64,000 nt of DNA from a virus (Duplodnaviria > Heunggongvirae > Uroviricota > Caudoviricetes). Under the pieces are notes generated by a model that was not told where the DNA came from, did not search any database, and saw only the letters and a program-made list of their open reading frames with translations. Below are positions 16,744 to 63,768 of this stretch, piece by piece. The DNA is taken from the IMG/VR virus record IMGVR_UViG_3300042275_000481, positions 38,172 to 102,171 of that record; one strand, given 5' to 3'. The first letter of the stretch is position 1. The number at the start of each line of letters is the position of its first letter. A program made the position numbers and the translations under genes.

Positions 16744-18177
16744 TTACATCTCCTGCACAATTTCTAGTTCTTCGATTTTGAATTGGTCGAATACTGCACT
16801 ATCTGTCATTGCAGTGAAAATAATATTGACTTGTTTACCTTGTTCAGGTAGATAATCACTGTAAATAAACGTTCTAAATGGTCTATTATCGATATATAAA
16901 ATACGATTATATTCATCATATTTTGTGACTGTTCCAGTATAACTGAATTTTAGTTTCTCAAAACCTTTACCATACGGTGCAAGGTTATAATGAGCATCAA
17001 ATATCTCAGTTGTATAATAATCCTCAAAAATGAATACATTCTCATCGACGTCATGTGCATTTTCTGCATAGTCTTTTTCGAAGTGTTCCTTCAATAATTG
17101 TAAATCTTTTTCTGGATTTCCAACACGAATTCCAATTGCTCCGTCATGTCCGCCACCATCAACTGTTGTATCTGGATTAGCTTTCAAGAAGCGGTTAAGG
17201 CCTTCATAAAGCGAATAACCAGGAACTGAACGACATGAAAATGATAGTGTTCCGTCTTTTTCTGTACCTACAAAAGCAGGTTTTTGTTCCTTATCTGAAA
17301 TCCTATTTGCTACTAAACCAATAAGACCACCGATTGGATAGTCATATTTATCAGCATCGATAACCATGAAACCGATATTTTCTTCTGGATTAGCCACATG
17401 TTCTTTAAAGATGTCACGAGTTTTCTCTTGACGTTCTCTGTTAACTTCACGATAGCCATTGATGTAGGTTCCATATTCGTTTGAACCAATGATATCTGAG
17501 ACGATATCTTCTGTTTCTCCATTTACACGTCCACTTGCATTGATTGTTGGTCCAACATAATATCCAAAAGTATCTTCTGTGATATAAGTATCTTTGTCAT
17601 CCATAATCCAACGTCCAACACCAAATCCAGCTAAGAATTTAAGTGTTCGTCCAGCCCAAAGTTTACGTTCTTTATAATAATTGATATTATCGAGAACATA
17701 TTTAACTAATAGTCGATTTTCACCAACTAATGGCATAACATCTGAAACAGTTGCAACAGCCGCAAATAATGCAGCATCTTTTAAAACATATTCATCTTCT
17801 TTTTTGCTTGGGTCTAATAATGCATTCCCAAGTTTAAGTGCAACAAATGCACCACAGATATGTTCATGTCTGTCATTTGTTACATGTGGATTGACAAGAA
17901 TATCAGCATTTGGAAGATTTTCCATATCTGGAATATGATGGTCTGTTACAATCATCACAAGCCCATTGCTCTTTCCATAATCAATAACGTTGTTTGCAGA
18001 TATTCCATTATCAACTGTGATAATAACTTCTGCGCCCATTTCTAGTGCTCTGTCAACGTGTTTTTCCTTAATTCCATAACCATCGTTAAGACGGTCTGGA
18101 ATGATGTAGTCACATTGTTTCACACCATAATGCTCTAAGATAATCTTCATAGCAGTTGTTGCCATTATACCGTCAGC
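16744..18177 (-). CDS. RecJ-like DHH-family ssDNA exonuclease, exon 2 of 2
   Basis: DHH motif IVTDHHIP and DHHA1 motif GGGH. The frame continues upstream of the annotated Met as ADGI, completing the RecJ motif I GDYD|ADG when joined to exon 1. Confidence 0.7.
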   Translation of the reverse strand, partial: ADGIMATTAMKIILEHYGVKQCDYIIPDRLNDGYGIKEKHVDRALEMGAEVIITVDNGISANNVIDYGKSNGLVMIVTDHHIPDMENLPNADILVNPHVTNDRHEHICGAFVALKLGNALLDPSKKEDEYVLKDAALFAAVATVSDVMPLVGENRLLVKYVLDNINYYKERKLWAGRTLKFLAGFGVGRWIMDDKDTYITEDTFGYYVGPTINASGRVNGETEDIVSDIIGSNEYGTYINGYREVNRERQEKTRDIFKEHVANPEENIGFMVIDADKYDYPIGGLIGLVANRISDKEQKPAFVGTEKDGTLSFSCRSVPGYSLYEGLNRFLKANPDTTVDGGGHDGAIGIRVGNPEKDLQLLKEHFEKDYAENAHDVDENVFIFEDYYTTEIFDAHYNLAPYGKGFEKLKFSYTGTVTKYDEYNRILYIDNRPFRTFIYSDYLPEQGKQVNIIFTAMTDSAVFDQFKIEELEIVQEM

Positions 18178-19363
18178 CTTAATTGGACTATATCTTCTAT
18201 AAATTGTTTAATTTATAGCAGTGCACTTCGAGTGGTATCGATCTCCACCCTACTCCGCTACATTCATCACGGATAGTCTCTTGACCTTCCTATTTCTAGG
18301 CTTGGCACAGGATAATTAGGTAACTTCCCCTGTTAGCATAACTTTTAACTATCATTTCCTATAGTTCCAAAAGTAAGTTATACACCTCGCTGATCCACGA
18401 GTTCACACTGTTTTACTACGACACTGTTATCGGTATAATATTTTCTAGGTTTTATTTCTAAATCTGGTGATATTAATAAAATATTAAATTCTTTTAATGA
18501 ATTATAATCTTTTTTATAAAATGTATCTAATATGATTTCTATATTATTTTCTTCACTGTAAGGTATTCTTAAAAGAGTTATCGAATTTTTTCTACAATAA
18601 TCATTTTTCATCTTATCATGAATTAATGCTGTTTTGTATCCTCTTTTTGAAGAATTAAAATGTTGTTCGCCATCAAATTCTATTAATTGATTTAGTATAT
18701 CTATATAATCAAATGGCATTTTCCTTTTATCTTTACAATCATCAAATCTATATTCACTATCTAAATAAAGATTTTTATCTTGTAGATATTTTGCAATATT
18801 TGATGAACCACTTCCTGGAATAGCACCAACTCTTTTAAGGTTTGCACATTCAGGACATCTTTTTCCTTGTTGAAAATTATTTGGAGTAGTATAAAAATAT
18901 GTTTCACAAATCTTATGCTTAACCCTTACTCTCATTTTGTTATTCCCAGAGTAAACAGGAGCATCTAATAATTCATAATCTGGATCATTAAATATACCTT
19001 CTAAATAATTTTCTTTCACGAGATATTGCCCTCTGCCTATTTTTTTCCGATTTTCATACTTTACTCTTCTTAAATTTTTTGTCTCGCAAGAACAGCGAAT
19101 CTTTCCTTCTTGAAATAATTTTCAGGAAGTGTTTATAACTTCACCACAGTCATGTTCTATCATAATAATAGATTTATTATTTTTATAATTCTTGAAATCA
19201 TATTTTTTACTTAAATTAAACCTAGAATCTAATTTTTTTATTTTCTTTTCTAATTCATTTCTTGTTAATCTCTTTGGCATAATTTTTCTCCTCCATATTA
19301 TAAATTACATAATATATTGTTTAGATTATGAATCAGAAAAGTTATAAAAATTTAATTTCTTTT
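18178..19363 (-). mobile_element. group I intron (minus strand) in the RecJ-like gene, carrying a decayed homing endonuclease gene
   Basis: Exon 1 ends with U of GAT (GDYD). The intron ends in G (..aag) before gct-gac-ggt (ADG). R element (revcomp of ggatagtctcttgacc, 18271-18286) and S element (revcomp of gactatatc, 18186-18194) are present in the correct order for a minus-strand transcript. Confidence 0.6.
18378..19280 (-). pseudogene. frameshifted intron-encoded homing endonuclease (zinc-ribbon + Vsr/DUF559-like nuclease family)
   Basis: ATG at 19278-19280 with a GGAGG RBS. The N-terminal module (IEHDCGEVI) reads in one frame, then shifts (~19120) into the 18378-19019 ORF. That ORF starts with GTG and contains CPECA and FDGEQHF...LLRIPY. 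Confidence 0.5.
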
Positions 19364-19621
19364 ATCGTAGTCGCCAATAATACAATAATGTTTATCCTTA
19401 TTATTAGCAATATAATCCACAAATTGTTCCTGATTTCCAATACCTGTGATTTCTGATTGTAAAAACTTTGTCAACCAGCTCTTCTTGTACAAATCTTGGA
19501 AATCCTCAAAAATCTTTTGAGGGTCAGAATAGCCGCTTTCTTGAAAGATTACAGACTCAACTTGTGAGTAGCCTTCAATCATCGGGTAATCTGATAATCT
19601 TTTTTGTATGTATTTCCTCAT
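19364..19621 (-). CDS. RecJ-like DHH-family exonuclease, exon 1 of 2
   Basis: 89-aa ORF ending ...HYCIIGDYD(KRN*). GDYD is the N-terminal half of RecJ motif I. The stop codon lies within the intron. Confidence 0.6.
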
Positions 19622-20748: not shown

Positions 20749-21765
20749 TTACTTAATACTCTTCTTAACTAAATATTCTGCAGTTCTAATAAGTTGTGCA
20801 GCATAACTCATTTCATTATCATACCAGGAAATGACCTTAACAAGCTGTTTCCCGTCTACTTCAATAAGTTGAGTTAATTGTCCGTCAACTAATGAACCGT
20901 AAGTCATACCGATTGTATCGCTTGAAACGATTGGGTCTTCTGTGTAACCAAGTGTTTCATTTGCAGCAGCTTTCATTGCGTCATTGATTTCTTGAACTGT
21001 AACATTTCTGCTAAGCTCAACTGTCAAGTCTACAACAGAACCTGTTGCTGTTGGTACACGTAAAGCAATACCATCCAATTTACCTTTTAGTTGAGGTAAT
21101 ACAAGTCCAACTGCTGATGCAGCGCCTGTAGATGTTGGAATAATATTTGATGCAGCTGTTCTGCCGCGTCTTGAATTTACACCTTTTGGATGTGGTCGAT
21201 CTAATGTCACTTGGTCATTTGTATAAGAGTGAACTGTTGTCACATAACCTTTAACAATACCAAATGAATCATCTAAAACTTTTGCAACTGGTGCTAAACA
21301 GTTTGTAGTACAAGATGCACCACTAATTACTGTTTCTGAACCATCAAGTGTTTCATGGTTTACACCAAATACGATCGTTTTTAAGTCACCTTTTGCTGGT
21401 GAATTGATAATAACTTTTTTGGCACCTGCTGTGATGTGCGCCATTGATTTTTCTTTTGACGCATAAAAGCCGGTACATTCTAAAACGACATCAACATTTA
21501 ATTCTCCCCAAGGAAGTTGTGATGCATCTTTTTCAGCATAGATTCTAATCTTTCTCCCGTCAACTACTAAGTAGTCTCCCTCAACGGAAATCTTATCCGA
21601 CATATAACGACCTTGTGTGGTGTCATATTTTAATAGGTGTGCTAATTCAGCAGGATTAGATAAATCGTTAATCGCTACCACTTCAAATGTTGGATTGTCA
21701 TGTACAAGTCTGTACGCTAATCTCCCGATACGACCGAAGCCGTTAATTGCAATTTTTGCAGCCAT
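20749..21765 (-). CDS. gap: type I glyceraldehyde-3-phosphate dehydrogenase
   Basis: N-terminal NGFGRIGR Rossmann motif. Active-site [10 protein letters not shown]. Full-length 338 aa with conserved WYDNE near the C-terminus. Confidence 0.9.
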
Positions 21766-22518: not shown

Positions 22519-22770
22519 TTATGCTAAGAACGCCTCTAGATCCTTTTTAGGTCTATAACCGACCATGGTTTGCATGTCATCTCCATCTAATTTAATTATA
22601 GTTGGGACTCCAGCAATTCCATACGACATAGCTTCTAATTGGCCTTCATCAGTGTCAATGTAATATTCTGTCATATCTAGGTTTTGTTCTTGTTTAATTT
22701 CTTCTAATATTGGTGTGATCATCTTGCAAGCGCCGCAATTTTGGGATTTGAATAATAATATTTTTGCCAT
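22519..22770 (-). CDS. thioredoxin/NrdH-like redoxin
   Basis: 83-aa thioredoxin-fold protein with a CGAC redox motif. cis-Pro region GVPTII. Next to the RNR gene. Confidence 0.65.
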   Translation of the reverse strand: MAKILLFKSQNCGACKMITPILEEIKQEQNLDMTEYYIDTDEGQLEAMSYGIAGVPTIIKLDGDDMQTMVGYRPKKDLEAFLA

Positions 22771-22985
22771 TGTTAGTTCTCCTTATTGTTTTTGTACTTT
22801 TTTAATCTTTGCCCAATCGTTTGTTCAGAGCAGTTAAAAATTCTTGCAATTTCTCTTTTTTTAAGGCCTTGCTCCAGTAATTCTTTCATTTTTTTGTCAT
22901 CTTTTTCTGAAAAATTTTTAGATACTGTATTCTTTTTAGCTTTACTGCTAGATTCTAAAAGTTTAATTGGAATTTTTATATGTTC

Positions 22986-23555
22986 TCATGCTTTTCTCTG
23001 TAATATTTTTGCAACATAACGATCGGATATTTTAAATTTCTTTCCGATTTCTATCATAGATATTCCATCTGAGAATAATTTGAATATTTCAATAATATTT
23101 TCTTTTTTTAACTTTGAATTCTGATGGTCTTCACCTTTTAAAGTGTTTATTAATCCATTTTTATAAGCATGAATAACATTTTTACTAATTGACATTATTT
23201 CTAAATTTCCAATTTTATTATTTAGTTTATTTCCATCTTTATGATTTACGATAAAATTTTTTGGAATTTCACCTATAAAATTTTCTGCAACTAATCTATT
23301 TATTCTAAAGGATTTATTCTTATTATTTTTATGAAGTTTTATAGTATAATATCCTCTTTCTAAAATTCTTTTTTTTATATAGCCATATTGATTTTTAACC
23401 CTGCCAAAATTTGAAATATAATAGTTATTATATCCTTTAATATTCTTTCAAATTTCGTCTAAGATAGGTTTTTGATCTTCAACGATAGGTTTATTAAAAT
23501 TTGCTTTAAGTAAACCGGCTTTAACAGCATGTTTTATATTTTCAGATTGGGTAAC
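22986..23555 (-). pseudogene. decayed HNH homing endonuclease (second NUMOD4-HNH module plus NUMOD1/HTH tail) interrupted by in-frame TGA codons
   Basis: Reading-through translation gives ...NNLE*VTQSENIKHAVKAGLL...DEI*KNIKGYNNYYISNFGRVKN...VNHKDGNKLNNKIGNLEIMSISKNVIHAYKNGLIN... The second TGA falls at the conserved Trp of the NUMOD4 WK-I-GY motif. The 3' part corresponds to ORF 22986-23195. Confidence 0.45.
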
Positions 23556-23870
23556 TCATTCTAAATTGTTCATATGGTTATTGAGTTTGTTTCCATCTTT
23601 ATGATTAACAAAAGATTTATTACTAGGATTATCAATAAACATTATAGCTACTAATCTATGGACCATGAATTGTCTTCTTTCCATATTTTTCTGTAAAGAT
23701 ACTCTATAGTATCCATTTTCAGATAATCCTAGTTTTTTCAATTGTCCCTTATATTTTTTGTTATTAATAACCCTATCTAATGATCTTATATTTCCTAGAT
23801 TTGATACTTGATAGTAACTCTCGTATCCAATTATATCTTTCCATATTTCTGTCATATTACCTACCTCCAA
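23556..23870 (-). CDS. HNH homing endonuclease (NUMOD4 + HNH_3 motifs), free-standing
   Basis: EIWKDIIGYESYYQVSNLGNIRSL (NUMOD4) and VHRLVAIMFIDNP...VNHKDGNKLNNHMNNLE (HNH). Confidence 0.65.
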   Translation of the reverse strand: MEVGNMTEIWKDIIGYESYYQVSNLGNIRSLDRVINNKKYKGQLKKLGLSENGYYRVSLQKNMERRQFMVHRLVAIMFIDNPSNKSFVNHKDGNKLNNHMNNLE

Positions 23871-23933
23871 TTTTTAACTATAATTAATTGTTATAAAAAA
23901 TTAAAAGTAAAATATATGATGTATGCTATAGGG

Positions 23934-24465: not shown

Positions 24466-25938
24466 CGTTTTATTCTATCAAGGTCGTTAATCTTGATACG
24501 TTCTCTTATGAACTGCTTATATTTTCATATAAGACTAGACTATATCACGATCCTTCTAAGGATCCTTTCCATTTCGATTTAAGGGATTTTCACCCACCAC
24601 TTGGCCCTACTCCTGTTGACAAATTTATATTAGCGCTTGTCCTTGGGATAGTCGTTGCACATCTAATTTAATTTTAACTTTTCTTTTAAGGTTTCTTCTA
24701 TTTTTAATTTGATTTTTTTCTTAGAGAGACTAGATACATCAATCCTCAAGAGCTGCTCGCCTGCAAAGTTATTTCTAATATTATCCCTTTGTTTAATAAT
24801 TTCAAGTTCCTTTGCTAGACTATCTCTATTAAATGATTCTTTATGAAATCTTCCATCAATTTCTATAAATTTAATATCATCATGTTCTATTTTAAAATCA
24901 AATTCAAATTTATCATTACCTATTTGTTGATAGTAGTTTTGTTGAAATATTATGTTATTTTTTTCTAAAAATAAACGAGTTATTTTTTCTCCATAAGGTT
25001 CTCTTTCACAGGTACATTGTAAATTTTGGTTTATCATATTTACAGTAGTATACCATTCTCTTGGTTTATCATATTTACAATTAATATGTTTTACCTTTAT
25101 TTTAGAATGAGCATTTTTGTAGTTAGATGAATCTAATAATTCAAAACCTTTCTGTTCTAAGAGTTTTTTAACATCTTCAATAGATCTTGTCCTAGATTTA
25201 ACTCGTTTTTCCTGGCCACAAATAGGACACCCAAAGCCGCGAGTTAAATTATTTGGAGAAACTTTTCACTCATGACCACAAATATTATGTCTATGTAATA
25301 TCTTAGTATCTTTATTAATATATTCTTCTAAAGCAATATATTCATTATTATAAATATCATATAGATTCTTTTTATACTCTTGGTTCGTAAGCTTAAATGT
25401 ACCATTGCAAATAGGACATCCATGTTTACCAGATAAAATAGAATTAGGCGTTGTTTTTCACTCATGACCACAAATATTATGTCTAATAGTGATAGCTGTA
25501 CGAGTTCCTTTATATTCTTCTAATGCAGTATATTCATTCTCATAAATATGATGGAGTTTAAATCTAAAAGCTCTATCGTCAAGTATTCTTCCACTACAAA
25601 TAGGACATCGCTGATTTGATGATAAAAATTTTACCAGTGGCATTTTTCATGTGAAACCACAATCTAGATGCTTAAATTCCATCAGTGATTTATTATTAGT
25701 ATAATCTGATTCATTAGAAATTAAAATATATTTTCCATGCCCTTTTTCAAAAACCTCATTTTTTATATCAACAAATTGTTTTCGTTTCATACAATACACT
25801 CTCCCTCTTATTAAAGAATAATATATTGTTTAGTTAAAATTAAATTATTTTGCTCAGGATTACCATATCTTTTGACTTAGGCTTCCCTGAATTAAAAAAG
25901 TTTTCTTATACTATTGCTAGTATAAGGCGCAATATTTT
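24466..25938 (-). mobile_element. group I intron (RNR intron 2) carrying a heavily decayed homing endonuclease gene
   Basis: Proposed 5' splice site after U of ..gctggcgt. The 3' end ...aataaaacg (omega G) is homologous to the end of the ORF-less Clp intron. R (24645-24660) and S (24548-24556) elements present. The 5' portion (aattcagggaagcc...atcctgagc, 25850-25905) resembles the 5' portion of intron 3. Confidence 0.55.
24663..25790 (-). pseudogene. multiply frameshifted homing endonuclease (zinc-ribbon + Vsr/DUF559-like family)
   Basis: ATG at 25788-25790 with an AGGGAG RBS. Fragments are MKRKQFVDIKNEVFEKGHGKYILISNE..., then ...NQRCPICSGR... (25458-25643), then the nuclease-domain remnant IEIDGRFHKES...LLRIDV (24663-25037). 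All are in different frames. Confidence 0.5.
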
Positions 25939-26798
25939 ACGCCAGCGCTACTTGAATTAGCAACTAATCCAAGTGTTCCTGAAGGTTTAACAGCACTTAC
26001 ATTAAGTGAATGAGATAAACCAAGTTCATCAGCATACTCATCTGCAGACCTTCTAATTACTCCGTAAAGCCAATCCATAAATTTATTTTCTTCTTCAATA
26101 TTCATACCTGTTGCTTCAATCATATCCATCCATGAAGATGGTGAAACACCGAGTAATCTATCTTCTTCTTGTGTTTTGTCCCACTCTTCTAATTCAAGCG
26201 TGTTCATGGTGACACGATAAGCAGAACGAGTTAAAACACGAAGGTCTTTTTCAAGTAAATCATAGTTGATAGTTTTATCTTCATTTAGGTAAAATACAAC
26301 ATTGAATGTAACTAAGTTACATGTCTGTTTTGAGCGTAACAAAATCTCGGCACAAGGATTGAGTCCTCTAGCTTGAGGGTGTCTCTTCTTGATTTCACTT
26401 TCATTCATAAATCCTGGTTCACCGAATGACTTGATATTCTCCATCCAAGCAGTTACTTCTTCCTTAGTTGGTTCATATCCTTCTTCGACAACCATTGTAT
26501 TATTTGAAATCCAATAGTGAGAAATTTTTCTATCACTAAAATCCGTGAAGTTTGTTTTGGCTTTTGCCATTTCATCATCTGTTCTTGAGAATAGTGCAAT
26601 CATAGCACTTCTTCTTACACCACCAACAACAATCGCTTCAGCAATTGAGTTTGCAATGTGCATCATATGAATTGGTCTTAGTTTTCCATCAATTGGCGCT
26701 TTTGTAAGAATGTTTCCGTGACTATCTAAATAATCTCCAGTAACAACTTCATGCATCTTTTTGATAGATTGAATGAATGGTTCGGCACCACTTGCATA
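25939..26798 (-). CDS. nrdJ: class II (NrdJ-like) ribonucleotide reductase, exon 2 of 3
   Basis: Contains GGVRRSA, the active-site loop NPCAEI (N-x-C-x-E) and the KPSGTLGLVANSSSAG motif. The exon ends inside the Val codon ahead of intron 2. Confidence 0.7.
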
Positions 26799-27987
26799 CA
26801 TATGTTAGCTCATAGTTTCTTATGAGATCAGACTATATCTTCAACCCTAGAACTATCTAGGATTGCCTCGCACTTCGAACTATAAGTTCTACTCTACTCA
26901 CTTCTTTACTTAGATTATGTTCTAAGCTATGTTTTCGATAGTCGTTGCACGTTCAAATATATCATCTAGAATTTCATGTATCTGACTAATTTGATTATAT
27001 CTTATTCTTATTAAATTGATATTATTTTCTTTTGCTATTTCATTTTTTCTGAAGTCATTTTCTTTCAAAATTTTGAATGATTCTTCCCCACCCCAATTAT
27101 CTTGAGGTATAAAATGTTGTATTCCGTCAAACTCAACTATTAAATTTTTTTCTTTAATCCAAAAATCCAATCTTAAATTTCCAAATAATTTATGCGTTTT
27201 ATTATATTTATATTTAATATTTTTAGAATTCAAATAATCTATAATAATTCGTTCACCATTTGAAGCTTGACAAAATGGACATCTTTGACCTTGTTGAAAG
27301 TCATTAGGTCTCATAACAAAAGTATTTTTGCATTTTTTATGATAATGTTTTATTTTTGTATATGAATTAATATATTCCTCATTTACAGTATATTGATTAG
27401 AACCTAATTTCTTAACTAAATTTTTATACTGTTGATGTGTTTTTCTAATTCCGCCATTGCAAACCGGGCATCTTCTTCCAGCTGAGATGAATTTATTGGC
27501 TGTTGCATAGTAATCATTTCCACATTTTTTATGTGTAAATTTCAACTTACTGTGATTATTCTCATAATTACCTTCAACTATATACTCATCTTGTACTAGA
27601 TCATATATTTGTTTTTGTATATCTTCTAGTGTGAATGCATGAAATTTTTTTCTTTTTTCATTAGCACATAACGGACAACGTCTTCCTTGTTTGAATTTAT
27701 CAGGTGTTACTGAATAAATATTACCGCAAGCAAGATGTTCTACTTTTAATTTAGTTTTCGAAGTAGTATAAGTTTCTAACCATTTATACTCATTCGCATC
27801 ATCAAATTTTTTATTAATATCATTTAAGAATTTTTTATGTTTAGTCATTTTAATACAGTCCCTTCTATAATAATATATAAGCTTCGCTCAGGATTGTCTC
27901 CATCATTACATGGTAAGAGTTTCCCTGAATTCACGAGGTTGCTATAATATATTGTTATATTAAGGTGGCTATGCTTTTGGGGCGTTA
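26799..27987 (-). mobile_element. group I intron (RNR intron 1) carrying an intact homing endonuclease gene
   Basis: Exon 1 ends ...TFGG with U before the in-intron TAA. The intron ends in G just before tat-gca-agt (YASGAEP). R (26927-26940) and S (26830-26838) elements present. Confidence 0.6.
26922..27848 (-). CDS. intron-encoded homing endonuclease: four tandem zinc-ribbon (CxxC...CPxC) modules plus a C-terminal Vsr/DUF559-like PD-(D/E)xK nuclease domain
   Basis: Repeats of H..CGN.Y...P..F..G.RCP.C. C-terminal IVEFDGIQHF...D...K...INLIRIRY. The 3' end reads through the R element of the intron core. Confidence 0.6.
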   Translation of the reverse strand: MTKHKKFLNDINKKFDDANEYKWLETYTTSKTKLKVEHLACGNIYSVTPDKFKQGRRCPLCANEKRKKFHAFTLEDIQKQIYDLVQDEYIVEGNYENNHSKLKFTHKKCGNDYYATANKFISAGRRCPVCNGGIRKTHQQYKNLVKKLGSNQYTVNEEYINSYTKIKHYHKKCKNTFVMRPNDFQQGQRCPFCQASNGERIIIDYLNSKNIKYKYNKTHKLFGNLRLDFWIKEKNLIVEFDGIQHFIPQDNWGGEESFKILKENDFRKNEIAKENNINLIRIRYNQISQIHEILDDIFERATTIENIA

Positions 27988-28986
27988 ACCACCGAAGGTT
28001 TTGAGTGGCTCTCCAGCTGGTCGGATGTTATTAAACACCATTCTAATATTCTTATAATCATGGTCAATTTCATAACTCATGTATTTTAAGAATTCAGTTA
28101 CAGCTTTACCCCAACCATCTCTGCTGTCTCCAACAATAATTGAAATAGTTCCATCAAGTTTTAGAACCTGAGTTTTGTCTTTTCTCATTGTCTTTGGAAG
28201 TGGGTTGTAAGGCACAACTTGTAATTTTACATCGCTTCTAAATCTTGGAAGTTTTTCTGCAACATCCCAAGTAATTCTGTATCCAACTCCAGCACCAACA
28301 GATAATAGATATAAAATATCATAGAATGAGTCTAATGTGTCTGGTTCAATAAATGAGCAGTTGAATAAACTTAAAGGATAACGTTCTGCAGCACTTGATC
28401 CACCTGTGAACATTGCACGTCCACTAAGGAAAGCTCTAAGATTAAACTGCATGTCAAATAATTGCTCAGCTTCTCTTTTAAGAAACTGCATAACTTTTTC
28501 TTCACGTTCACGAGTATCCATATTGATATTATGGTCTGTGGCACGTAAAATTGTTTCTTTAAATGTTTCTCGTCTACCTAATTCAACTACATCTCGACTA
28601 TATGTTCTCAAATAAGTAAATTTACTTACAGGGCCCATATGTTTTGGGTAGCTGTCATAGTTCACAAGGAAACTCGGTGCTAAGTACTCAGAGCTATAAA
28701 CAACATCTTTCAACGATTCTCTTCGTTTCGCTCTTGCATTTCTTCTTAATATATAATGCTCAACAGCTTCAGGATATTCCCTGATTGCATGTTGCACTTT
28801 GTTTTGAATCTCTTCTATTCCAATACCATCATAAACAACTACAGATTTAGCCATCTCTTGAATCTTTGAGTATAGTTCCTCTGCTCTTTCTTCTCCATAA
28901 GTCTCTCTGAACGCTTTGTAGATTGCCTGTTCGATTTTGGAGACATCGAATTTTTGCAATTCACCAGTTCTTTTACGAATATACAT
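27988..28986 (-). CDS. nrdJ: class II (NrdJ-like) ribonucleotide reductase, exon 1 of 3 (ATP-cone N-terminus)
   Basis: N-terminal ATP-cone (RKRTGELQKFDVSKIEQAI). Exon ends ...KTFGG. Confidence 0.7.
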
Positions 28987-32612: not shown

Positions 32613-33216
32613 TTATACTGATACTACTTCTTTTTCTTTTTGCTTGGACTCGATACGATCAATAGCCACAAGCATTTGTTTTCTTACAGCGCGCTTCAAT
32701 CCACGTGCACCATAAGTTTCGATATCAGCTGTCTTAATGATATCATCGATATCAGATTTAATGAATTTAACATCTTTTTCCATTTCCATGTACTCTTGAT
32801 ATTCTTTCTTGTATCTGTCGATTAGTGTTTCAGCGATATCTTTTTCAAGACCGTTGAACACAATGATTTCATCTAAACGGTTGATGAATTCTGGACGGAA
32901 ATGCTTTTCAACATTTTCTCTAATTTCGCTTGACTCAGTTTTATGAGTTACGAATCCAGAACTTCTAGGTTTAGCAAAGTCTTTACCATAACCTAAGTTC
33001 GTTGTGAAAATAATAATCGCATTTCTAAATGAAACACGATTTTTATGGTTATCAGTCATTTCACCTGTATCTAAGATATTCAATAATGTATCGAATACTT
33101 TTGGATGAGCTTTTTCAATTTCATCAAATAGAACGACTGAGTTTGGATACTGTTTGATTTTTGCAACTAAACCTGATTCATCATCATGGCCTATATCTTT
33201 TGTGTTACGATAGTTC
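32613..33216 (-). CDS. ClpC/ClpA-like double-AAA+ ATPase, exon 3 of 3
   Basis: GHDDESGLVAKIKQYPNSVVLFDEIEKAHPKVFDTLLNILDTGEMTD (D2 Walker B/sensor), RPEFINRLDEIIVF (sensor 2), GARGLKRAV. The 5' boundary is uncertain (33191-33216). Confidence 0.65.
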
Positions 33217-33491
33217 GCTAAACTATCTCTTTATATTTCTATAAAGAACTGACTATATCTTCACCCGATAAACGGGGTACTGCATTTCGAGTTCGCTTGA
33301 ACCCTACTCCCATAAGGGATAGTCGATGAACCTTCATCTCATTGAGATGTTTGGCTGCGGATTGCCCAATCTCTTGCCTTTTTACCATCTCTCCGACGTT
33401 ACTCTTCGATTAACAGGTAGCTAAGAGCTCTAAGGGGTTTCCCGCAATTAACAGTATTTTCTTTTGTATATCACTATACAATGGGGCGTAT
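33217..33491 (-). mobile_element. ORF-less group I intron (Clp intron B)
   Basis: R (revcomp of gggatagtcgatgaacc, 33316-33332) and S (33251-33259) elements. Conserved gcggattgcccaatct and gctctaaggggtttcccgcaatta blocks. Proposed 5' splice site after U of tgg-att. The 3' splice site is ambiguous: ..tagcg or ..gatata. Confidence 0.5.
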
Positions 33492-33628
33492 AATCCACCC
33501 AGGGGCACTACCAGTAATTTTTGTTACATCCATTTCAGTACCATATTCACCCATATTTAATTTGATTAAGTTTCGTTCAGCACCACAGAATTGCTTTGCA
33601 ACAATTTTACAAGTTTCGGTTTTACCGA
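33492..33628 (-). CDS. ClpC/ClpA-like ATPase, exon 2 of 3 (46-aa micro-exon)
   Basis: Encodes VGKTETCKIVAKQFCGAERNLIKLNMGEYGTEMDVTKITGSAPGWI. This is the remainder of the D2 Walker A (GPTG|VGKTE) through the ...G-A-P-P-G-Y-like motif. Confidence 0.6.
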
Positions 33629-33938
33629 CCGTTTATATTCCATCGAAATCGTTAATTTCAATGCGTTCTCTTATGAACTGCTTATACTTTCATATAAGAC
33701 TAGACTATATCATCACCTTTTTCAGGTGGTTTACATTTCGACTCACTTGAGTCTACTCCTTACGGATAGTCGTTGAACTTTTCTCTTATTAAGAGACTTA
33801 GCTGCTGATTGCCCAATCTACACACTTTTCAAGCCTTGGCTTTTCCTCACGGATCGCAGTGGCAGTGTAGCTCTAAGGGGTTTCCAGCAATTAGTAAACT
33901 TTGCTTATGTAAATTTCTTTACATAGGGGCTAAATTTA
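33629..33938 (-). mobile_element. ORF-less group I intron (Clp intron A)
   Basis: Exon 1 ends GPTG (ggt, U) followed immediately by TAA. The intron ends ..ataaacg (G) before gtcggtaaaacc. R (33754-33768) and S (33693-33701) elements, plus the gctgctgattgcccaatct and gctctaaggggtttccagcaatt blocks. Confidence 0.65.
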
Positions 33939-35408
33939 ACCCGTAGGACCTGCAAATACCATTGATGTCAATGGTTTCTCTGGATCGACTAATCCTCTTT
34001 CAATGTATCTTAGGTTCTCAATAACACGGTTCAATGGTCTTTCTTGACCTAATAGAACACGTTTCAACTCTTTTGCAGTTGCTTCTGTTTTGTTGTCAGC
34101 AATATTGATATCATATTTGACTTTAATCGCTGTGCGAACATCATCTGTGAAAACAATTTCACCGTCTTCATTGAAAACAGTTGAACTGGCAAATGCAAGT
34201 TCCAACATATTAATTGCTTTTGCTGGATTTGCTTGGTCAAGGGTGTATTTTTCAGAATAGTCTAAGACTTTTCTTACTAAATCGTCCTCAGCCTTCTTAC
34301 CAAAATATTCTTCGATATCAGGTTGTACACCTTTAAGAATTTGATAAGTTTGTTGTTTTGTAGGCTCACTAATGTTTACCTTATGGAAACGTCTTTCTAA
34401 TGCTTTGTCTTTGCTGATGTGTTTTTGATATTCATCATCAGTTGTAGTCCAAATCATTTGAATTTCACCACGAGTGATATATGGTTTAAGAATATTACCA
34501 CCACTTGCAGCTCCTTCTGCGTCTCCTAATTTCACCATCATATGTGCTTCATCAATGAACAGAATTACTTCTGGATTTTCTTTGACAAGTTTAATGATGT
34601 TCATAAGTTTTTCTTCAAAATCACCACGATATCTAGTTCCAGCAACTAATGCACCTGGATCTAATTGGTATACAATTTTGTTTCTGAACTTTTTAATAAC
34701 ATTTTTATTATTAATACGATTTACGAATTCATATACTGCAACAGTCTTACCTGTACCAGCAGGTCCAACGAGAATCGCATTTCTAATTGATTTTCCTGAC
34801 AAAGCCATTTGAATTTGATTAACAGCATTGTCTGCACCGATTACAACTGGTTTCGCTTGTTTCACATATCTGTTAAGATTTGTTAACTCACGGATTTTTT
34901 CCAATGCATCGATTTCTTGTTTAGTTGCAACAATATTAAATGCTTCAACAATTTTCTCAGACATTTGGTCAACTTTTTGAGTTGAACCGCCGAGAACAAA
35001 TTCAAGAATACTTCTAAGTTTATAACTTGGGTCTGAAAATAACACTTTAATAAGGTCTTCAACTTGCATTTGTCTGCGTTGTGCAAGAGCATCTCTTTTA
35101 AGTTGATTTCTTACAGCATTACCTTCTTCATGCCAAGTAACTTCAAAACGTTCTCCGCCTACATCCAATCCAGGATATAGTTCCAAGAATACCTTTTCAA
35201 AATCTTCTCCCTTAACTTCGTATTCTTGTAAGATATTCGTTAGAGTTTCATACGTCTCAGCAAATCTTTCAGTATCTTTATTCTTCTTCAAGAAGATTGT
35301 TGTACCTAAGAATAGATGAGGTGTACCAACCCAATTTTGATAGTTCTTAATTGCAATTTGTCCCGCTTTTTGCGAAATCATTTCGACTTCTTGTGATAGT
35401 GCCTTCAT
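33939..35408 (-). CDS. ClpC/ClpA-like ATPase, exon 1 of 3 (Clp-N repeat, D1 AAA+, start of D2)
   Basis: D1 Walker A GPAGTGKT. Walker B ILFIDEAH. ALERRF. Ends at ...MVFAGPTG (first half of the D2 P-loop). Confidence 0.75.
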
Positions 35409-38948: not shown

Positions 38949-39599
38949 TTAGTTTTCACTAAGTTGTATGTTTTCATAATCTAGCTCCTCATGGAAGATA
39001 ACTTTCTTCGATTGAGGTTGTTGATTTTTTATCATTTCAATTATTTCTAAGAATTTGTCAAAATTATTATCGTACATTTTAAGATAATTAAAGTTTGACT
39101 TCTTAACTGCTTCATCTTGTGCTCGTTCATCATCAATATCTCTTAGTCTGTAATGTGTATTGTCAGATGCTTTAATGTTCACGATAAGATTAAGGCTTGT
39201 AATATAAAAATCTGGAATGTGAAATCTTTGATTACCTTCTGCATCTATATACGGAAAAGTCATTGGAGCTGGCCCCATAACATCACCTGGGTTGTCCCAA
39301 TCAAGATAAACATCGAGATATTCTAAAAATTTTCTTTCATAACTTCCAGTATATGGAGTTGTAGTTCCATCTTCCCATTTGTATTCTCCAGATATGCTTC
39401 TATTTGAAAGCATTTTCTTTTGTTGTTCTGGTTCATCAAGTAAATGGACTTTTCCATATTTTTGTTTCATTCTTCTCTTAAACATTTCACGATATGCTTC
39501 TCTTGCTCGTTCATCAGCAAAGCGTTCATATCGGCCAGTTGTAACGTTAAACTTAGTTGGCTTGCCAGTCATAACACACTTTCCATGCTCTTTTGTCAA
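38949..39599 (-). CDS. hypothetical protein (TTG start), separated by a single in-frame TGA from the upstream zinc-finger ORF
   Basis: 216-aa ORF. The same frame as 39615-39746 continues through one TGA (...IVFN*RNKYALTKEHGKC...). Confidence 0.4.
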   Translation of the reverse strand: MTKEHGKCVMTGKPTKFNVTTGRYERFADERAREAYREMFKRRMKQKYGKVHLLDEPEQQKKMLSNRSISGEYKWEDGTTTPYTGSYERKFLEYLDVYLDWDNPGDVMGPAPMTFPYIDAEGNQRFHIPDFYITSLNLIVNIKASDNTHYRLRDIDDERAQDEAVKKSNFNYLKMYDNNFDKFLEIIEMIKNQQPQSKKVIFHEELDYENIQLSEN

Positions 39600-39614
39600 A
39601 GCATATTTATTTCT

Positions 39615-39746
39615 TCAATTGAAAACAATTTGCATTGCTGGTAATCCGTGCAGTTCATCCTTATGTTCTTTCTCCATATGGTTGTATAATGCATCTTCAA
39701 CTATATAGTTTTTCTTACAAAATGGACATTTATGCATTTGTGCCAT
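39615..39746 (-). CDS. small C2H2-like zinc-finger protein (43 aa)
   Basis: ATG with a GAGGTGAG RBS. KCPFCKKNY...HMEKEH (C-x2-C...H-x3-H). Confidence 0.4.
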   Translation of the reverse strand: MAQMHKCPFCKKNYIVEDALYNHMEKEHKDELHGLPAMQIVFN

Positions 39747-39950
39747 ATTCTCACCTCGATCTTCTCACATATAATTAATTGTTCTTATTCTAACACCTCT
39801 TAGAATTAAAAGGTGTCAAAATAGACCGAAGAGAGGATCTATTTTGACGTTCAAAGAGAAATGAAGAAAGAAACTATGAAGAGATATCTTTGTGGGGTCT
39901 CTAGTCCCACTAATAATTTGTTCTGAATTTTCTCATGAAATTTCTAAGGT

Positions 39951-60407: not shown

Positions 60408-61496
60408 TTATAGTTCTATAATATTTTCTAAAATTTGTTCAATCTTATTAAAATTCCAATAGGGTATCCTAATAAGTTTTATACCTTTTTGCTTACAATA
60501 TTCATCTTTTAAATGGTCATTGTATTTTTGTTCAGACAACTTATCTAAACCGAAAATAGGTTCATAATGAAATTCACCATCATATTCTATTAAGGTATTA
60601 CTATCAGATAGAAAAAAGTCAAATCTTAGTGGATTGATAAATTTCAAATCTTCAAACGAAAACTCTCTTTCAAACTGTATCTTTCTATTTTCTAGCCATT
60701 CTGATATTTTATTTTCACCCTTTGATGACTTACAAATAGGGCACCTATCACCAGATAGGAATCTTGTTGGACTAACGTCATATATATTACCACACTTATT
60801 ATGTTTTATTCCTATTTTTGTATGTGTGTTTGTATAATCTTCTAAAACACTATATTCGTCGCCTATTAGATTAAAAACTTCTTCCTTAAATTCTTTGGTG
60901 GATTTCTTAAATTTTCCATTACAAATAGGACACCTATCACCAGATAGGAATCTTGTTGGACTTACTTTATATTCACTATCACACACAAGATGACGCATTT
61001 TTATCTTTGAGTCGCAATTAACATAATCACTTAAAACACTATATTCGTCACCTACTAGATTAAAAACTTCTGCTTTAAAGTCCTCGGTAGATTTTTTTAT
61101 CAGTCCTGCACATTTTGGACAACCATGTCCTTTTAAGATATTTACAGGTGTTGGTTCATATTCAAAACCACATTTTTTGTGCCTCATAAGTATAGGAGTT
61201 TTGTTATTTTTATAATCACCCAATACTTCATATTCAGGTCCTAATATATCCATAACATCGTCTTTAAAGGTATCAATAGTTTTTCTTAGACCGTTTCCAA
61301 CTTTTATAATAGCACATTTTGGACAACCATGTCCCCGATTTATCATTCGGCTAGGATGTGCTTCAAATATATTTCCACACTTCTTGTGCTTCATGGTTAT
61401 TTTTGTATTGGTGTTTGTATACTCTCCTAAAACTTCATACTCATCACCAAATTTTACTTCAACTTCTTTAATAAATGATTCAGTAGTTCTTTTCAT
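60408..61496 (-). CDS. free-standing homing endonuclease (zinc-ribbon repeats + Vsr/DUF559-like nuclease)
   Basis: Five tandem H.KCG..(Y/F)...P...L.G.GCP.C modules. C-terminal IEYDGEFHYEP...D..K..YC...GIKLIRIPYWN. Confidence 0.6.
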   Translation of the reverse strand: MKRTTESFIKEVEVKFGDEYEVLGEYTNTNTKITMKHKKCGNIFEAHPSRMINRGHGCPKCAIIKVGNGLRKTIDTFKDDVMDILGPEYEVLGDYKNNKTPILMRHKKCGFEYEPTPVNILKGHGCPKCAGLIKKSTEDFKAEVFNLVGDEYSVLSDYVNCDSKIKMRHLVCDSEYKVSPTRFLSGDRCPICNGKFKKSTKEFKEEVFNLIGDEYSVLEDYTNTHTKIGIKHNKCGNIYDVSPTRFLSGDRCPICKSSKGENKISEWLENRKIQFEREFSFEDLKFINPLRFDFFLSDSNTLIEYDGEFHYEPIFGLDKLSEQKYNDHLKDEYCKQKGIKLIRIPYWNFNKIEQILENIIEL

Positions 61497-61558: not shown

Positions 61559-62218
61559 TTACAGTTCAATTATGTTACTCTTATATTTTGTTTGGTCGAT
61601 GTCCTCAATATAGACACCCAAGCTTTCTAAAAGAATATATCCATTTTGCATATTTTTACTTACCATTGTTCGGTAGTCAATAAGTGGTCGTAGATATTCA
61701 GGAATTCTTTCCACACCTTTTGGAACAGCAACAACGCTCATTCCAAATCGTGAAATATCAATTTCAGGTTCATCTACGTTTCGATTAAATACTGTGCGAC
61801 TAATTGCGCCATATTTTTTCGGATAAGTATCTTTTAGTTTCTCTAATTCTGGATGATTTTCATCTACTGTTTTTAACTTAAGTAGATTTACTTTTTCTGG
61901 TGGAACTATTTGATTTTCAGGTTCTAGCGCATTCCATATAATTGCTCCTCTAACCTGTTCAAGCGTAGATGGATCTTTATATTGCTCAAATTGCTCTATA
62001 CTCTTTGGAAGTGAATATAATAATTCTCCGCCTCTTAGTGATTCTTCAATTTCTAAACCTAATTCATCAAATTTATTAATAATAGTTCTAATATTAATAT
62101 CTTCCGCTGACAGAATATCTTCCTGTAAAATTGTCGTAAATTGTTCACGTAATTTCTTAGGAACGTTTGTTTTCCTTATGGCTAACATATATCTTCCATT
62201 GAGTTCGTTAACTCTCAA
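61559..62218 (-). CDS. 3'-terminal exon of an intron-interrupted gene of unknown product
   Basis: The ORF begins with TTG inside conserved intron-3' sequence (..cataagagaacg|cattgagag..). The true acceptor is probably ~62180-62200. Confidence 0.45.
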   Translation of the reverse strand: MRVNELNGRYMLAIRKTNVPKKLREQFTTILQEDILSAEDINIRTIINKFDELGLEIEESLRGGELLYSLPKSIEQFEQYKDPSTLEQVRGAIIWNALEPENQIVPPEKVNLLKLKTVDENHPELEKLKDTYPKKYGAISRTVFNRNVDEPEIDISRFGMSVVAVPKGVERIPEYLRPLIDYRTMVSKNMQNGYILLESLGVYIEDIDQTKYKSNIIEL

Positions 62219-62455
62219 TGCGTTCTCTTATGAACTGCTCATACTTTCATATGAGATGAGACTATATCTTCATCTTTCGATGTTTCCTGTTTCGGACCAC
62301 TTGGTCCTACTCCTTACGGATAGTCGTTGAACCTTCATCTCATTGAGATGTTTGGCTGCGGATTGCCCAATCTACACACTTTTCAAGCCTTGGCTTTTCC
62401 TCACGGATCGCAGTGGCAGTGTAGCTCTAAGGGGTTTCCCGCAATTAAGGAAATT
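62219..62455 (-). mobile_element. ORF-less group I intron (unknown-gene intron 2); boundaries approximate
   Basis: R (62318-62333) and S (62249-62257) elements, plus the gctgcggattgcccaatct and gctctaaggggtttcccgcaatt blocks. Nearly identical to Clp intron A. Confidence 0.55.
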
Positions 62456-62461
62456 TTATAA

Positions 62462-62550
62462 GAGCATAACTGTTTACCCTTAATATCAAGAACTGGTTTG
62501 TCTAATAGACGCCCAAGTTCACCTGTAATTAAACCGGCATACATAATTTT
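62462..62550 (-). CDS. internal micro-exon of the unknown intron-interrupted gene (approx. boundaries)
   Basis: Only one frame is open between the two introns: KIMYAGLITGELGRLLDKPVLDIKGKQ... It begins right after an intron-terminal G (..gagtttaattg|aaaatt). Confidence 0.4.
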
Positions 62551-63768
62551 CAATTAAACTCGCTAAGTTTAATTCGCTTTCGCTGCTCATATTTTCATAT
62601 GAGATAAGACTATATCTTCAGATATTTATTGAACGTAAATATCTGTCTTCCTTTTCCAATAGGCTTCTATTGTACTCGCATTGCGATAGTCGTTGAACTT
62701 TTTTCTTAAAATTAATTCTTCAAGTATATTTTCAAGTTGTTTATAATTTTTATATGATAATCTTAATAGTGTATACTTAGATAATTGTATAATATTATTT
62801 TTTCTATTGTCTCGTTCTCTAATAACATCAATAGATTCAAATAATGATTTTTCTTTAAAATGTTGTATTCCATCATATTCAATTATTAGATTTAAAGAGT
62901 CAATAATAATATCTACTCTTAAATCCGTATTGAATAATTTAGAATCAAATTCAAATAAAATATTATTTTTTTCTAAGAACTGAATTATTTTTCTTTCACC
63001 TTTAGAAACTTTCTTAGAACAAATAGGACATCTACTAGCAACAGATTTTGATATGAAATTGTTCGCTTTTACGTCCCATTCATGACCACATTTATTATGT
63101 CTTAGTTTAATTTTTGTTCTAGTGTTTGTATATGGTGATATTAATGAATACTCATCCCCAACAGTTTCCTCTAGTTTTCTTTTAAACATTTCTTCAGTCC
63201 AAGTTCCTTTCCCAGAACAATACGGACAAGAATTTTTTTGATTCAAAAGATTATTTGCTCTCATTTTGAATTCATGACCACATTTATTATGCTTAAAAAT
63301 TGATGATTTATTTGCATAACCTGAATAATCTAATACTGAATACTCATTATCTAATTCTATTTCTAGTCTTTTTATAAGATTTTTTTCAGTTAATCTTATA
63401 GAACCTGAACATTTAGGACACCTTCTTCCATTATTAAACGTATTAGGTGCTACTAAATACTCATGGCCACATTTATTATGTCTTATTAAGATTTTAGTTT
63501 TTGAATTTATATAATCATTCCCAAGAACTGTATATTCCATTCCAACTTGATTTTTTACTTTGTGTTTAAAACTTTCTAGTGTATCTTTTTTCATAATATC
63601 ACTCCTTAATAATTTGTTCAATGAGTGACAACATGAAATAAAAAGTTCTTAATTTTAAGAAACTTAGCTGCTGATTGCCCAATCTTTCAGATTTTCAAAC
63701 ATTCACGCTCACTTTTGCAAGTCACGTTGTAGTTCTGAAAGCTCTAAGGGGTTTCCAGCAATTAAAAA
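62551..63768 (-). mobile_element. group I intron (unknown-gene intron 1) carrying an intact homing endonuclease gene; 5' boundary approximate
   Basis: R (62674-62689, inside the 3' end of the HE ORF) and S (62618-62626). 5' blocks gctgctgattgcccaatct (63661-63679) and gctctaaggggtttccagcaatt (63742-63764). Confidence 0.55.
62626..63621 (-). CDS. intron-encoded homing endonuclease (zinc-ribbon repeats + Vsr/DUF559-like nuclease)
   Basis: Four H.KCGHE(Y/F/W)...N....RCP.CSG modules. IIEYDGIQHF...D..R..K......LLRLSY. Confidence 0.6.
   Translation of the reverse strand: MNKLLRSDIMKKDTLESFKHKVKNQVGMEYTVLGNDYINSKTKILIRHNKCGHEYLVAPNTFNNGRRCPKCSGSIRLTEKNLIKRLEIELDNEYSVLDYSGYANKSSIFKHNKCGHEFKMRANNLLNQKNSCPYCSGKGTWTEEMFKRKLEETVGDEYSLISPYTNTRTKIKLRHNKCGHEWDVKANNFISKSVASRCPICSKKVSKGERKIIQFLEKNNILFEFDSKLFNTDLRVDIIIDSLNLIIEYDGIQHFKEKSLFESIDVIRERDNRKNNIIQLSKYTLLRLSYKNYKQLENILEELILRKKFNDYRNASTIEAYWKRKTDIYVQ

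Follow-up and report, generated by a model that had tools for sequence, protein, structure and literature searches.

Subgroup IA of the group I introns has as its signature two pairings, P7.1 and P7.2, between P7 and the 3' strand of P3 (Michel-Westhof classification). Phage introns of this subgroup (T4 td, nrdB, and nrdD, the SPO1 DNA polymerase gene, and Staphylococcus Twort-like phages; Rfam RF00028) and the recA intron of Bacillus phage 0305phi8-36, which encodes I-Bth0305I of the "EDxHD" Vsr-like family (PMC3239194, PDB 3R3P), are the described systems closest to the locus reported here. We analyzed a 64,000-nucleotide (nt) stretch (the window) of a Caudoviricetes virus record (IMGVR_UViG_3300042275_000481, positions 38,172 to 102,171) in which a RecJ-like single-stranded DNA (ssDNA) exonuclease gene on the minus strand is interrupted within its metal-binding motif I. 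We conclude that the interruption is very probably a mobile group I intron that would be spliced at U19364/G18178, restoring motif I, and that its endonuclease gene has probably been inactivated or attenuated. We infer splicing, homing, and inactivity of the endonuclease from the features, homology, covariation, and distribution among relatives that we observed. The splice had been proposed in an earlier note on this DNA, and the tests possible on sequence agree with it; the intron class, the inner endonuclease gene, and its premature stop go beyond that note. All features of the RecJ-like gene and its intron are on the minus strand.

Exon 1 of the RecJ-like gene comprises 86 codons (19364 to 19621), starting at ATG 19621-19619 behind a Shine-Dalgarno sequence, AAAGGAGG, at 19639-19632, and ending with GDYD (GAT, 19366-19364). 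Its 3' end reads TGT ATT ATT GGC GAC TAC GAT, followed by AAA AGA AAT TAA, and the 89-amino-acid (aa) open reading frame (ORF) at 19352-19621 is exon 1 plus KRN and a stop. Exon 2 (16744 to 18177) has 477 codons and a stop and starts with GCT GAC GGT (ADG). The 473-aa ORF (18165-16744) has an open frame 5' of its called Met, where ATT AAG precedes GCT GAC GGT ATA ATG (IK before ADGIM); public gene calls begin exon 2 at Met 18165 and hence report 473 aa. The minus-strand sequence therefore confirmed two readings of the earlier note, that the 89-aa ORF ends in CIIGDYD plus KRN and a stop and that the downstream frame reads ADGIM before the annotated Met. That annotation misses the true N terminus was also correct, the public exonuclease call being only 473 aa, but the count of two small ORFs was not, as the region is annotated as four ORFs (89, 52, 213, and 473 aa; public calls on an identical contig). 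The junction U19364/G18178 is the only one that gives GAT followed by GCT. Ligation after U19364 and before G18177 would yield a 563-aa DHH/DHHA1 protein, with the predicted spliced-junction sequence GGCGACTACGAT joined to GCTGACGGTATAATGG.

The joined 563-aa product matched the Pfam families DHH (2e-17) and DHHA1 (9e-7), PHROG 2484, "RecJ-like ssDNA exonuclease" (4e-56), and four distinct RecJ sequences with solved structures, among them 8Y30 (the best, 2e-32) and 5F54 (1.5e-30). The alignments to the RecJ structures are continuous over residues 86 and 87 (ciigDYDADGimatt); the alignment to RecJ that had been suggested as a check, for a product of ~564 aa, is thus unbroken at the predicted joint. 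Among 5.8 billion proteins searched, more than 30 were full-length homologues of the joined product without an interruption (556 to 563 aa, 51 to 77% identical); the search also found the 473-aa call of the window gene itself, under the source label "single-stranded-DNA-specific exonuclease." The joined product is colinear with the uninterrupted ~560-aa homologues, whose junction sequence is HYCIIGDYDADGIMATT. Exon 1 can be aligned to the N termini of full-length homologues, and 11 of the 14 aligned full-length homologues have CIIGDYDADGIMATT across the junction, the same as the joined product.

The family alignment identified conserved positions in the joined product at D84, D86, D88, D142, D165-H166-H167, D232, and G428-G429-H430; D84 and D86 are nearly invariant, and the other listed DHH/DHHA1 positions are invariant. 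DHH motifs I to IV and the DHHA1 domain with GGGH were all found, and motif I is whole only once the exons are joined; the 473-aa public call is without the metal-binding Asp residues. The joined motif is far beyond chance. Megablast found no close relative among 50,697 phage genomes, nor did a protein-guided IMG/VR search with the RecJ gene yield one.

The intron is 1186 nt long (18178 to 19363), lies in phase 0 between Asp86 and Ala87, and starts with AAAAG and ends with AAUUAAG. A U precedes the 5' splice site, G18178 is the last base of the intron, and the unspliced RNA has an in-frame stop after three codons past the 5' splice site. The P1 5' strand, CUACGAU (19364 to 19370), consists of the last 7 bases of exon 1 and is complementary to GUCGUAG at 18422-18416, with a U19364.G18422 wobble at the splice site. 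The 11-nt internal guide sequence, CAGU followed by GUCGUAG (CAGUGUCGUAG; 18416 to 18426), pairs both exon ends. Against the ligated junction CUACGAU/GCUG it is gapless, with seven pairs to the 5' exon (P1, including the U.G) and four to the 3' exon (P10), where CAGU at 18426-18423, directly beside the P1 guide, pairs exon 2 GCUG at 18177-18174. The degenerate guide pattern YRGYRTYGTRG is expected 0.56 times in 128 kb (both strands) and ~0.005 times in the intron on the coding strand. The guide is the same in the window and in two related alleles, L001 and L139. Scanning JGI metagenome contigs for the spliced junction gave no match, and a metagenome scan with the guide-P3 23-mer gave nothing useful, the locus L143 being a chance match.

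Only a UAAAA linker stands between the guide and the P3 5' strand (CAGUGUG, 18404 to 18410), so there is no P2. This strand pairs with 18225-18219, and P3 columns 5 to 8 covary with columns 325 to 328; the P3 3' strand (UGCACUG, 18219 to 18225) was placed by the family alignment, the fold, and the covariance model. Between the P3 5' strand and J3/4 lie two extra helices. Extra hairpin 1 (CUCG-uggaucag-CGAG, 18386 to 18401) was found in the family alignment, by RNAfold, and with the covariance model. Extra helix 2 (GUAUAACUU/AAGUUAUGC, 18336 to 18383) has 9 bp (18383-18375 with 18344-18336), encloses the hairpin AACUAU-AGGAAAUG-AUAGUU, whose loop, AGGAAAUG, is invariant, and was also returned by RNAfold. 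Paired cells make up 99% of extra helix 2 in the family alignment, with compensatory changes in seven of the nine pairs, and its inner hairpin shows two compensatory pairs between the window and L001. Extra helix 2 resembles an optional P3.1/P3.2-type insertion. P3.1 is an optional group I pairing (PMC3873408), and that status was all that turned up in the literature on P3.1/P3.2 nomenclature. A first assignment of P3, which paired GUUAUGC beside J3/4 with GCACUGC, was refuted by family covariation; the GUUAUGC segment forms the 3' strand of the extra helix, whereas the 5' strand of P3 is in fact located 75 nt upstream.

The remainder of the core follows in order. The model alignment and the fold place J3/4 (UAA), P4 (CAGG/CCUG), a minimal P5 (AGUU-ACCU-AAUU, a 4-bp hairpin), and J5/4 at 18308 to 18335. 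P6 (GCC/GGU) and P6a (CCUA-GAAA-UAGG) occupy 18284 to 18306, with a C-G to U-A compensatory change relative to L001. The P7 5' strand (GACUAU, 18273 to 18278), which follows J6/7 (UCAAGA), has its partner in AUAGUC at 18191-18186 and does not vary within the family. P7.1 (UCCG...CGGA, 18273-18254) and P7.2 (GGUGG...CCACU, 18249-18231) together span 18231 to 18273, as folded by RNAfold and at the same position in the model alignment, and by this position the intron is subgroup IA-like. The P7.1/P7.2 stretch is ~84% identical to Campylobacter- and Escherichia-phage sequences, two of which are annotated as homing or plain endonuclease genes. P8 (UAUAAAUU-AAAC-AAUUUAUA, 18198 to 18217) was supported by the family alignment (helix 9), the fold, and the covariance model. 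J8/7 (GAAGAU), the P7 3' strand, and an 8-nt tail, CAAUUAAG, running to the terminal G18178 complete the intron (18178 to 18197). With only these 8 nt after P7, there is no P9 hairpin; L001, L139, and L138 have equally short tails, and the tail varies among the four RecJ-site alleles.

At least 119 IMG/VR viral contigs (loci L019-L137) contain the motif GCTAACAGGGG...ATCCTGTGCCAAG; their introns make up a widespread phage family that is without P2 and has two covarying helices between the P3 5' strand and J3/4. We aligned 29 compact members of this family. Standard pairs filled 91.4% of the cells, compared to 70.9% after shuffling and 32 to 41% when the partners were slid, and the covariation score was 0.568, compared to 0.164 for shuffled alignments (reached in 0 of 500 shuffles) and 0.06 to 0.10 for slid partners. 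Four consecutive P3 pairs showed all four Watson-Crick types with zero unpaired cells in the 29 sequences. Covariation backs P3, P8, and the extra helices, and P4, P6, and P7 are invariant and complementary. A covariance model, R1, trained on 16 other phage introns with the window and its alleles left out, aligned end to end at 18184-18414 (154.9 bits, E 4e-39) with no noncanonical pair flagged. The single-sequence minimum-free-energy fold (RNAfold) yields the same helices. Against Rfam RF00028, whose gathering score is 50 bits, 4 of 11 tested family members of the same architecture passed (58 to 73 bits) and 7 fell below, and the 4 members above the threshold tie the family to the curated group I class. 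The ORF-less L001 allele scored 23.3 bits (E 5.8e-4), below the threshold. Two other kinds of element were considered and rejected: a group II intron, as there is neither a reverse-transcriptase ORF nor an Rfam match, and an intein, which is ruled out by the stops of the insert in the host frame.

The relatives cover every stage of the homing cycle: empty site, intact endonuclease gene, nonsense copy, and gene-less intron. The no-intron state is found in L004, L005, L140-L142, and many more (the L141 site reads TGCATTATAGGAGACTACGAT joined to GCTGATGGTATTATGGCT). The intron with an intact endonuclease gene is present in L139, which has the same core family, and in L138; the intron with a nonsense copy is present in the window and in the identical L011-L018; and L001-L003 carry an ORF-less intron of 297 nt. 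The 891-nt endonuclease cassette in the P1 loop (L1; 18446 to 19336) is absent from L001, to which BLAST aligns window gene positions 1-285 and 1177-2878 only. The same codon boundary is occupied in all intron-bearing alleles. All four of these have GACTACGAT at the end of exon 1, a constancy that P1 requires; synonymous sites vary in the intron-less alleles, of which only one of five has the exact GACTACGAT and two of five end the exon in C instead of the required T. The window and L001 are 93% identical in the ribozyme part and 83% identical in the exons, and dN/dS between them is 0.055 for exon 1 and 0.098 for exon 2 (dS ~1 to 1.6). This strong constraint on exon 1 is indirect evidence for splicing in vivo, since an exon 1 that was never joined should not stay so constrained. 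The splice junction claimed in the earlier note, restoring GDYD/ADG, is thus supported by colinearity with homologues and with RecJ structure sequences, by a group I core whose guide pairs with exactly both exon ends, and by a same-site intron in three other diverged phage lineages.

One of these alleles has a different makeup. L138 (2419-3645) is a diverged RecJ allele (GDYD/VDG) whose intron occupies the same site, shares the P1 guide GUCGUAG with the window, and encodes an intact, related endonuclease, P0122. In its core, judged by eye, AAUU-GCUGG comes immediately after P3 and the P5 region is long; the score with model R1 is 49 bits. This makeup points to recombination between the endonuclease/guide module and the core.

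We propose the following course of events for the window intron. In the pre-mRNA, the last seven bases of exon 1 would pair with the guide GUCGUAG ~940 nt downstream to form P1, placing U19364.G at the splice site, and the P3-P8 core would fold with P7.1 and P7.2. A guanosine would attack after U19364, the first four bases of exon 2 would pair with CAGU beside the guide (P10), and the terminal G18178 would define the 3' splice site. Once ligated, the exons would encode an enzyme of 563 aa in which the metal-binding motif I is intact. The P1-loop endonuclease, with its zinc-ribbon repeats and Vsr-like nuclease, probably once spread the intron into intron-less RecJ alleles.

Several observations weigh against a group I intron spliced in this way. 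The z-score of the single-sequence fold is only -1.79. Rfam misses the intron, both in the whole window at the gathering threshold and in 18100-19450 at an E of ≤10, and has no match in L138 or L139. The intron is without P2 and without P9/P9.0, its P5 is minimal, and its P1 closes a loop of ~940 nt (exon 1 end to guide); with the short tail, these features mean that efficient self-splicing may need help. P9 is counted among the usual group I pairings (PMC3873408), and in our judgement it is peripheral to catalysis and not class defining, but its absence is a real departure. Finally, the selection argument presumes that the intron is older than the split between the window and L001, and it could have homed separately into each lineage. 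The low Rfam score is plausibly due to the absence of P2 and P9, the minimal P5, the displacement of the P3 strand by two extra helices, and the ORF in the P1 loop; the shortfall would then plausibly reflect missing or minimal elements of this copy and not a different class.

These same features bear on whether the intron acts alone. We consider it unlikely that this group I intron is not autocatalytic and needs a phage or host maturase or chaperone, which would modify our interpretation and not replace it. The missing P2 and P9, the 4-bp P5, the ~940-nt P1 loop, and the low Rfam score would fit such a need, but the catalytic core (P3, P4, P6, P7, P8, J3/4, J6/7, and J8/7) is complete and conserved, and the extra helices, P7.1, and P7.2 may give stabilizing contacts. 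Moreover, no maturase-like gene was seen, and the only ORF of the intron is a nuclease.

The homing-endonuclease gene in the P1 loop has 300 codons (18378 to 19280) and its own ribosome-binding site, GGAGGAG, at 19294-19288. The guide, the P3 5' strand, extra hairpin 1, and the start of extra helix 2 all fall within the 3' end of the gene, so endonuclease translation and P1/P3 formation would be mutually exclusive. Codon 53 is an in-frame TGA (19124-19122), and for this reason the gene is seen as 52-aa and 213-aa ORFs. When the stop was replaced with X, the protein matched one PHROG family, phrog_559, across the stop (4e-41). That family is labeled HNH endonuclease, an identity that is not supported, as there was no HNH Pfam match and the nuclease domain is Vsr/PD-(D/E)XK-like by fold; the PHROG name appears to be an annotation carry-over. 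The nuclease domain appears closest to I-Bth0305I, at a sequence identity of ~20%, and a PDB sequence search with the endonuclease found no significant match, only noise. The N-terminal DNA-binding part consists of repeated treble-clef zinc ribbons (DUF4379/CapR type in relatives and paralogues).

Of the intact homologues, one of 291 aa (59% identical) has Trp at the TGA position and one of 293 aa (54% identical) has Phe. The 247 codons after the TGA are open and keep the invariant nuclease residues D191, E201, G204, H207, D222, K225, and R238, and the C-terminal tail is frameshifted relative to the intact homologues. The TGA is not an assembly error, since independently assembled contigs from two independent runs are 100% identical over the whole gene. 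It is also not explained by genetic code 4, with TGA as Trp, as the long genes of the coding strand are without internal TGA. Judged from its sequence, the window endonuclease is probably disabled or strongly attenuated by the TGA. Low-level readthrough, for instance as Trp, which would leave the endonuclease attenuated and the intron still mobile, seems to us quite improbable. The TGA replaces the Trp codon of the closest intact homologue, TGG to TGA being a single transition, and the downstream codons are open with every invariant nuclease residue in place, all of which readthrough would account for, but a recent nonsense mutation fits the same facts, TGA is not a sense codon elsewhere in the long genes of the window, and the tail is out of frame. 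All available copies are 100% identical, which leaves no differences from which to gauge selection on the part downstream of the TGA.

It is very improbable that the insertion inactivated RecJ and left decaying ORFs on either side that never come to be rejoined. In favor of a dead gene, gene callers do return only fragments, and the endonuclease gene of the intron already has a nonsense codon. Against this, every family-invariant residue is kept in both exons, purifying selection is strong between two intron-bearing lineages, and the guide, its exon partner bases, and the ribozyme core are all conserved. Some phage genes are split by free-standing endonuclease genes, and annotation pipelines place a start at the ATG that lies four codons inside exon 2, but an enzyme whose 89-aa and 473-aa parts are made separately and assemble without RNA splicing is scarcely credible, because the break falls in the middle of a DxDxDG metal-binding motif that runs unbroken in every homologue, the exon 2 ATG has only a weak AAGG in front of it, and the full ribozyme core and matching P1/P10 guides would be left unexplained.

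The window contains further interrupted genes on the minus strand. Two ORF-less group I introns (33229-33506 and 33681-33948; Rfam scores of 85 and 98 bits), with an exon of ~174 nt between them, split an AAA+/Clp-like ATPase gene whose pieces are the ORFs 33936-35408 and 32613-33083. An intron that Rfam detects, at 62238-62540, interrupts a divergent gene for a family-B DNA polymerase, whose C-terminal part is ORF 61559-62218; a second, Rfam-missed intron at ~62606-63760 (3' core 62606-62715, 27 bits with R1) probably splits the same gene. The second polymerase intron carries an endonuclease ORF at 62626-63621 (DUF4379, CapR, and DUF559), and ORF 60408-61496 is a further gene of that endonuclease's family. 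The ribonucleotide reductase large-subunit gene lies in pieces within 24536-28986, with ATP-cone and RNR_alpha domains at 27985-28986 and the barrel at 25917-26801. Its region holds two Rfam-missed introns, one with halves at 27855-27927 and 26829-26917 around an endonuclease ORF (26922-27848) and one with halves at 25855-25889 and 24536-24628 around a TGA-riddled ORF region (24663-25829) that is probably a decaying endonuclease gene. A P4-like motif, AATTGCTGG, is present at 22610-22618, where model R1 found no match.

Two long frames free of TAA and TAG on the minus strand, 22773-23873 and 38949-39950, contain three and four in-frame TGAs, respectively, and may be additional decayed genes. 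Stop codons are used very unevenly in the window: in 54 stop-free frames of at least 150 codons, taken from both strands and not all of them genes, the stops are TAA (38), TAG (14), and TGA (2). The GC content of the window is 31.7%, and no tRNA genes were found in it. Two genes upstream of RecJ is a complete glyceraldehyde-3-phosphate dehydrogenase gene (20749-21765, minus strand; 338 aa, Gp_dh_N and Gp_dh_C), here in an apparently large phage genome (contigs up to 127 kb) and with its position kept in L004 and L005. The relatives also encode an S30AE/HPF ribosome-hibernation factor, a CofE-like F420 ligase, a PnuC NMN transporter, and thioredoxin.

These findings matter first for annotation: public calls give a 473-aa "exonuclease" without metal-binding Asp residues and three orphan ORFs in place of a predicted 563-aa product. 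Searching for introns with Rfam misses this one and most of its relatives in the intron family. It is possible, and we suggest it tentatively, that the RecJ-site intron exemplifies an under-recognized minimal phage group I architecture with no P2 or P9, two covarying inserted helices, and a P1-loop endonuclease gene that overlaps the guide; if so, many phage genes would be misannotated as fragments. Self-splicing of the 297-nt ORF-less form would make it a compact natural ribozyme with a layout that RF00028 systematically underscores, as it does for 7 of the 11 tested relatives and all four RecJ-site alleles. The RecJ site offers a complete natural homing-cycle series, useful for studying intron and endonuclease turnover, in which one lineage (L138) combines the same site and a related endonuclease with an apparently different ribozyme core. 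Among the intact relatives, P0122 and P0123 are candidates for Vsr-like homing endonucleases in which a new zinc-ribbon architecture would bind DNA; they would target a known 14-codon conserved sequence. The current understanding of group I introns is unaltered, and the main value lies in the corrected annotation and the homing-cycle series.

The joined product shares the DHH and DHHA1 domains, the DxDxDG motif I, and the DHH motif with the bacterial RecJ 5'-3' ssDNA exonuclease (8Y30, 5F54, 1IR6, and 2ZXO), to which it is ~30 to 34% identical. It differs in that its C-terminal ~110 residues have no domain assignment, RecJ_OB (PF17768) is not recorded for the phage clade, and its exonuclease activity is predicted from sequence. 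Compared to I-Bth0305I, the window endonuclease is distant, carries zinc ribbons and not NUMOD/HTH motifs, and has a premature stop; its ORF is in L1, whereas that of the 0305phi8-36 recA intron is in P5. With the phage subgroup IA introns, the window intron shares the P3-P8 core, P7.1/P7.2, the U.G pair, and the terminal G, as well as a location between two codons of a highly conserved active-site motif in a gene of DNA metabolism, a homing-endonuclease gene, and a sporadic distribution among close relatives. Stretches of the core are 82 to 93% identical to sequences that separate the pieces of split tape-measure genes in Streptococcus phage Str-PAP-1 and Lactococcus phage 38502 and of a split DNA polymerase I gene in a Staphylococcus Twort-like phage, and to a sequence in an Enterocloster phage. 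Unlike the known phage IA introns, it interrupts a RecJ-like gene, has its endonuclease gene in the P1 loop overlapping the guide, has no P2 or P9 and two helices between the P3 5' strand and J3/4, and scores below the Rfam threshold. A literature search for a phage RecJ intron found no report of one at this site. The RecJ-like host gene thus appears to be a new insertion site for a type of element that is itself well known.

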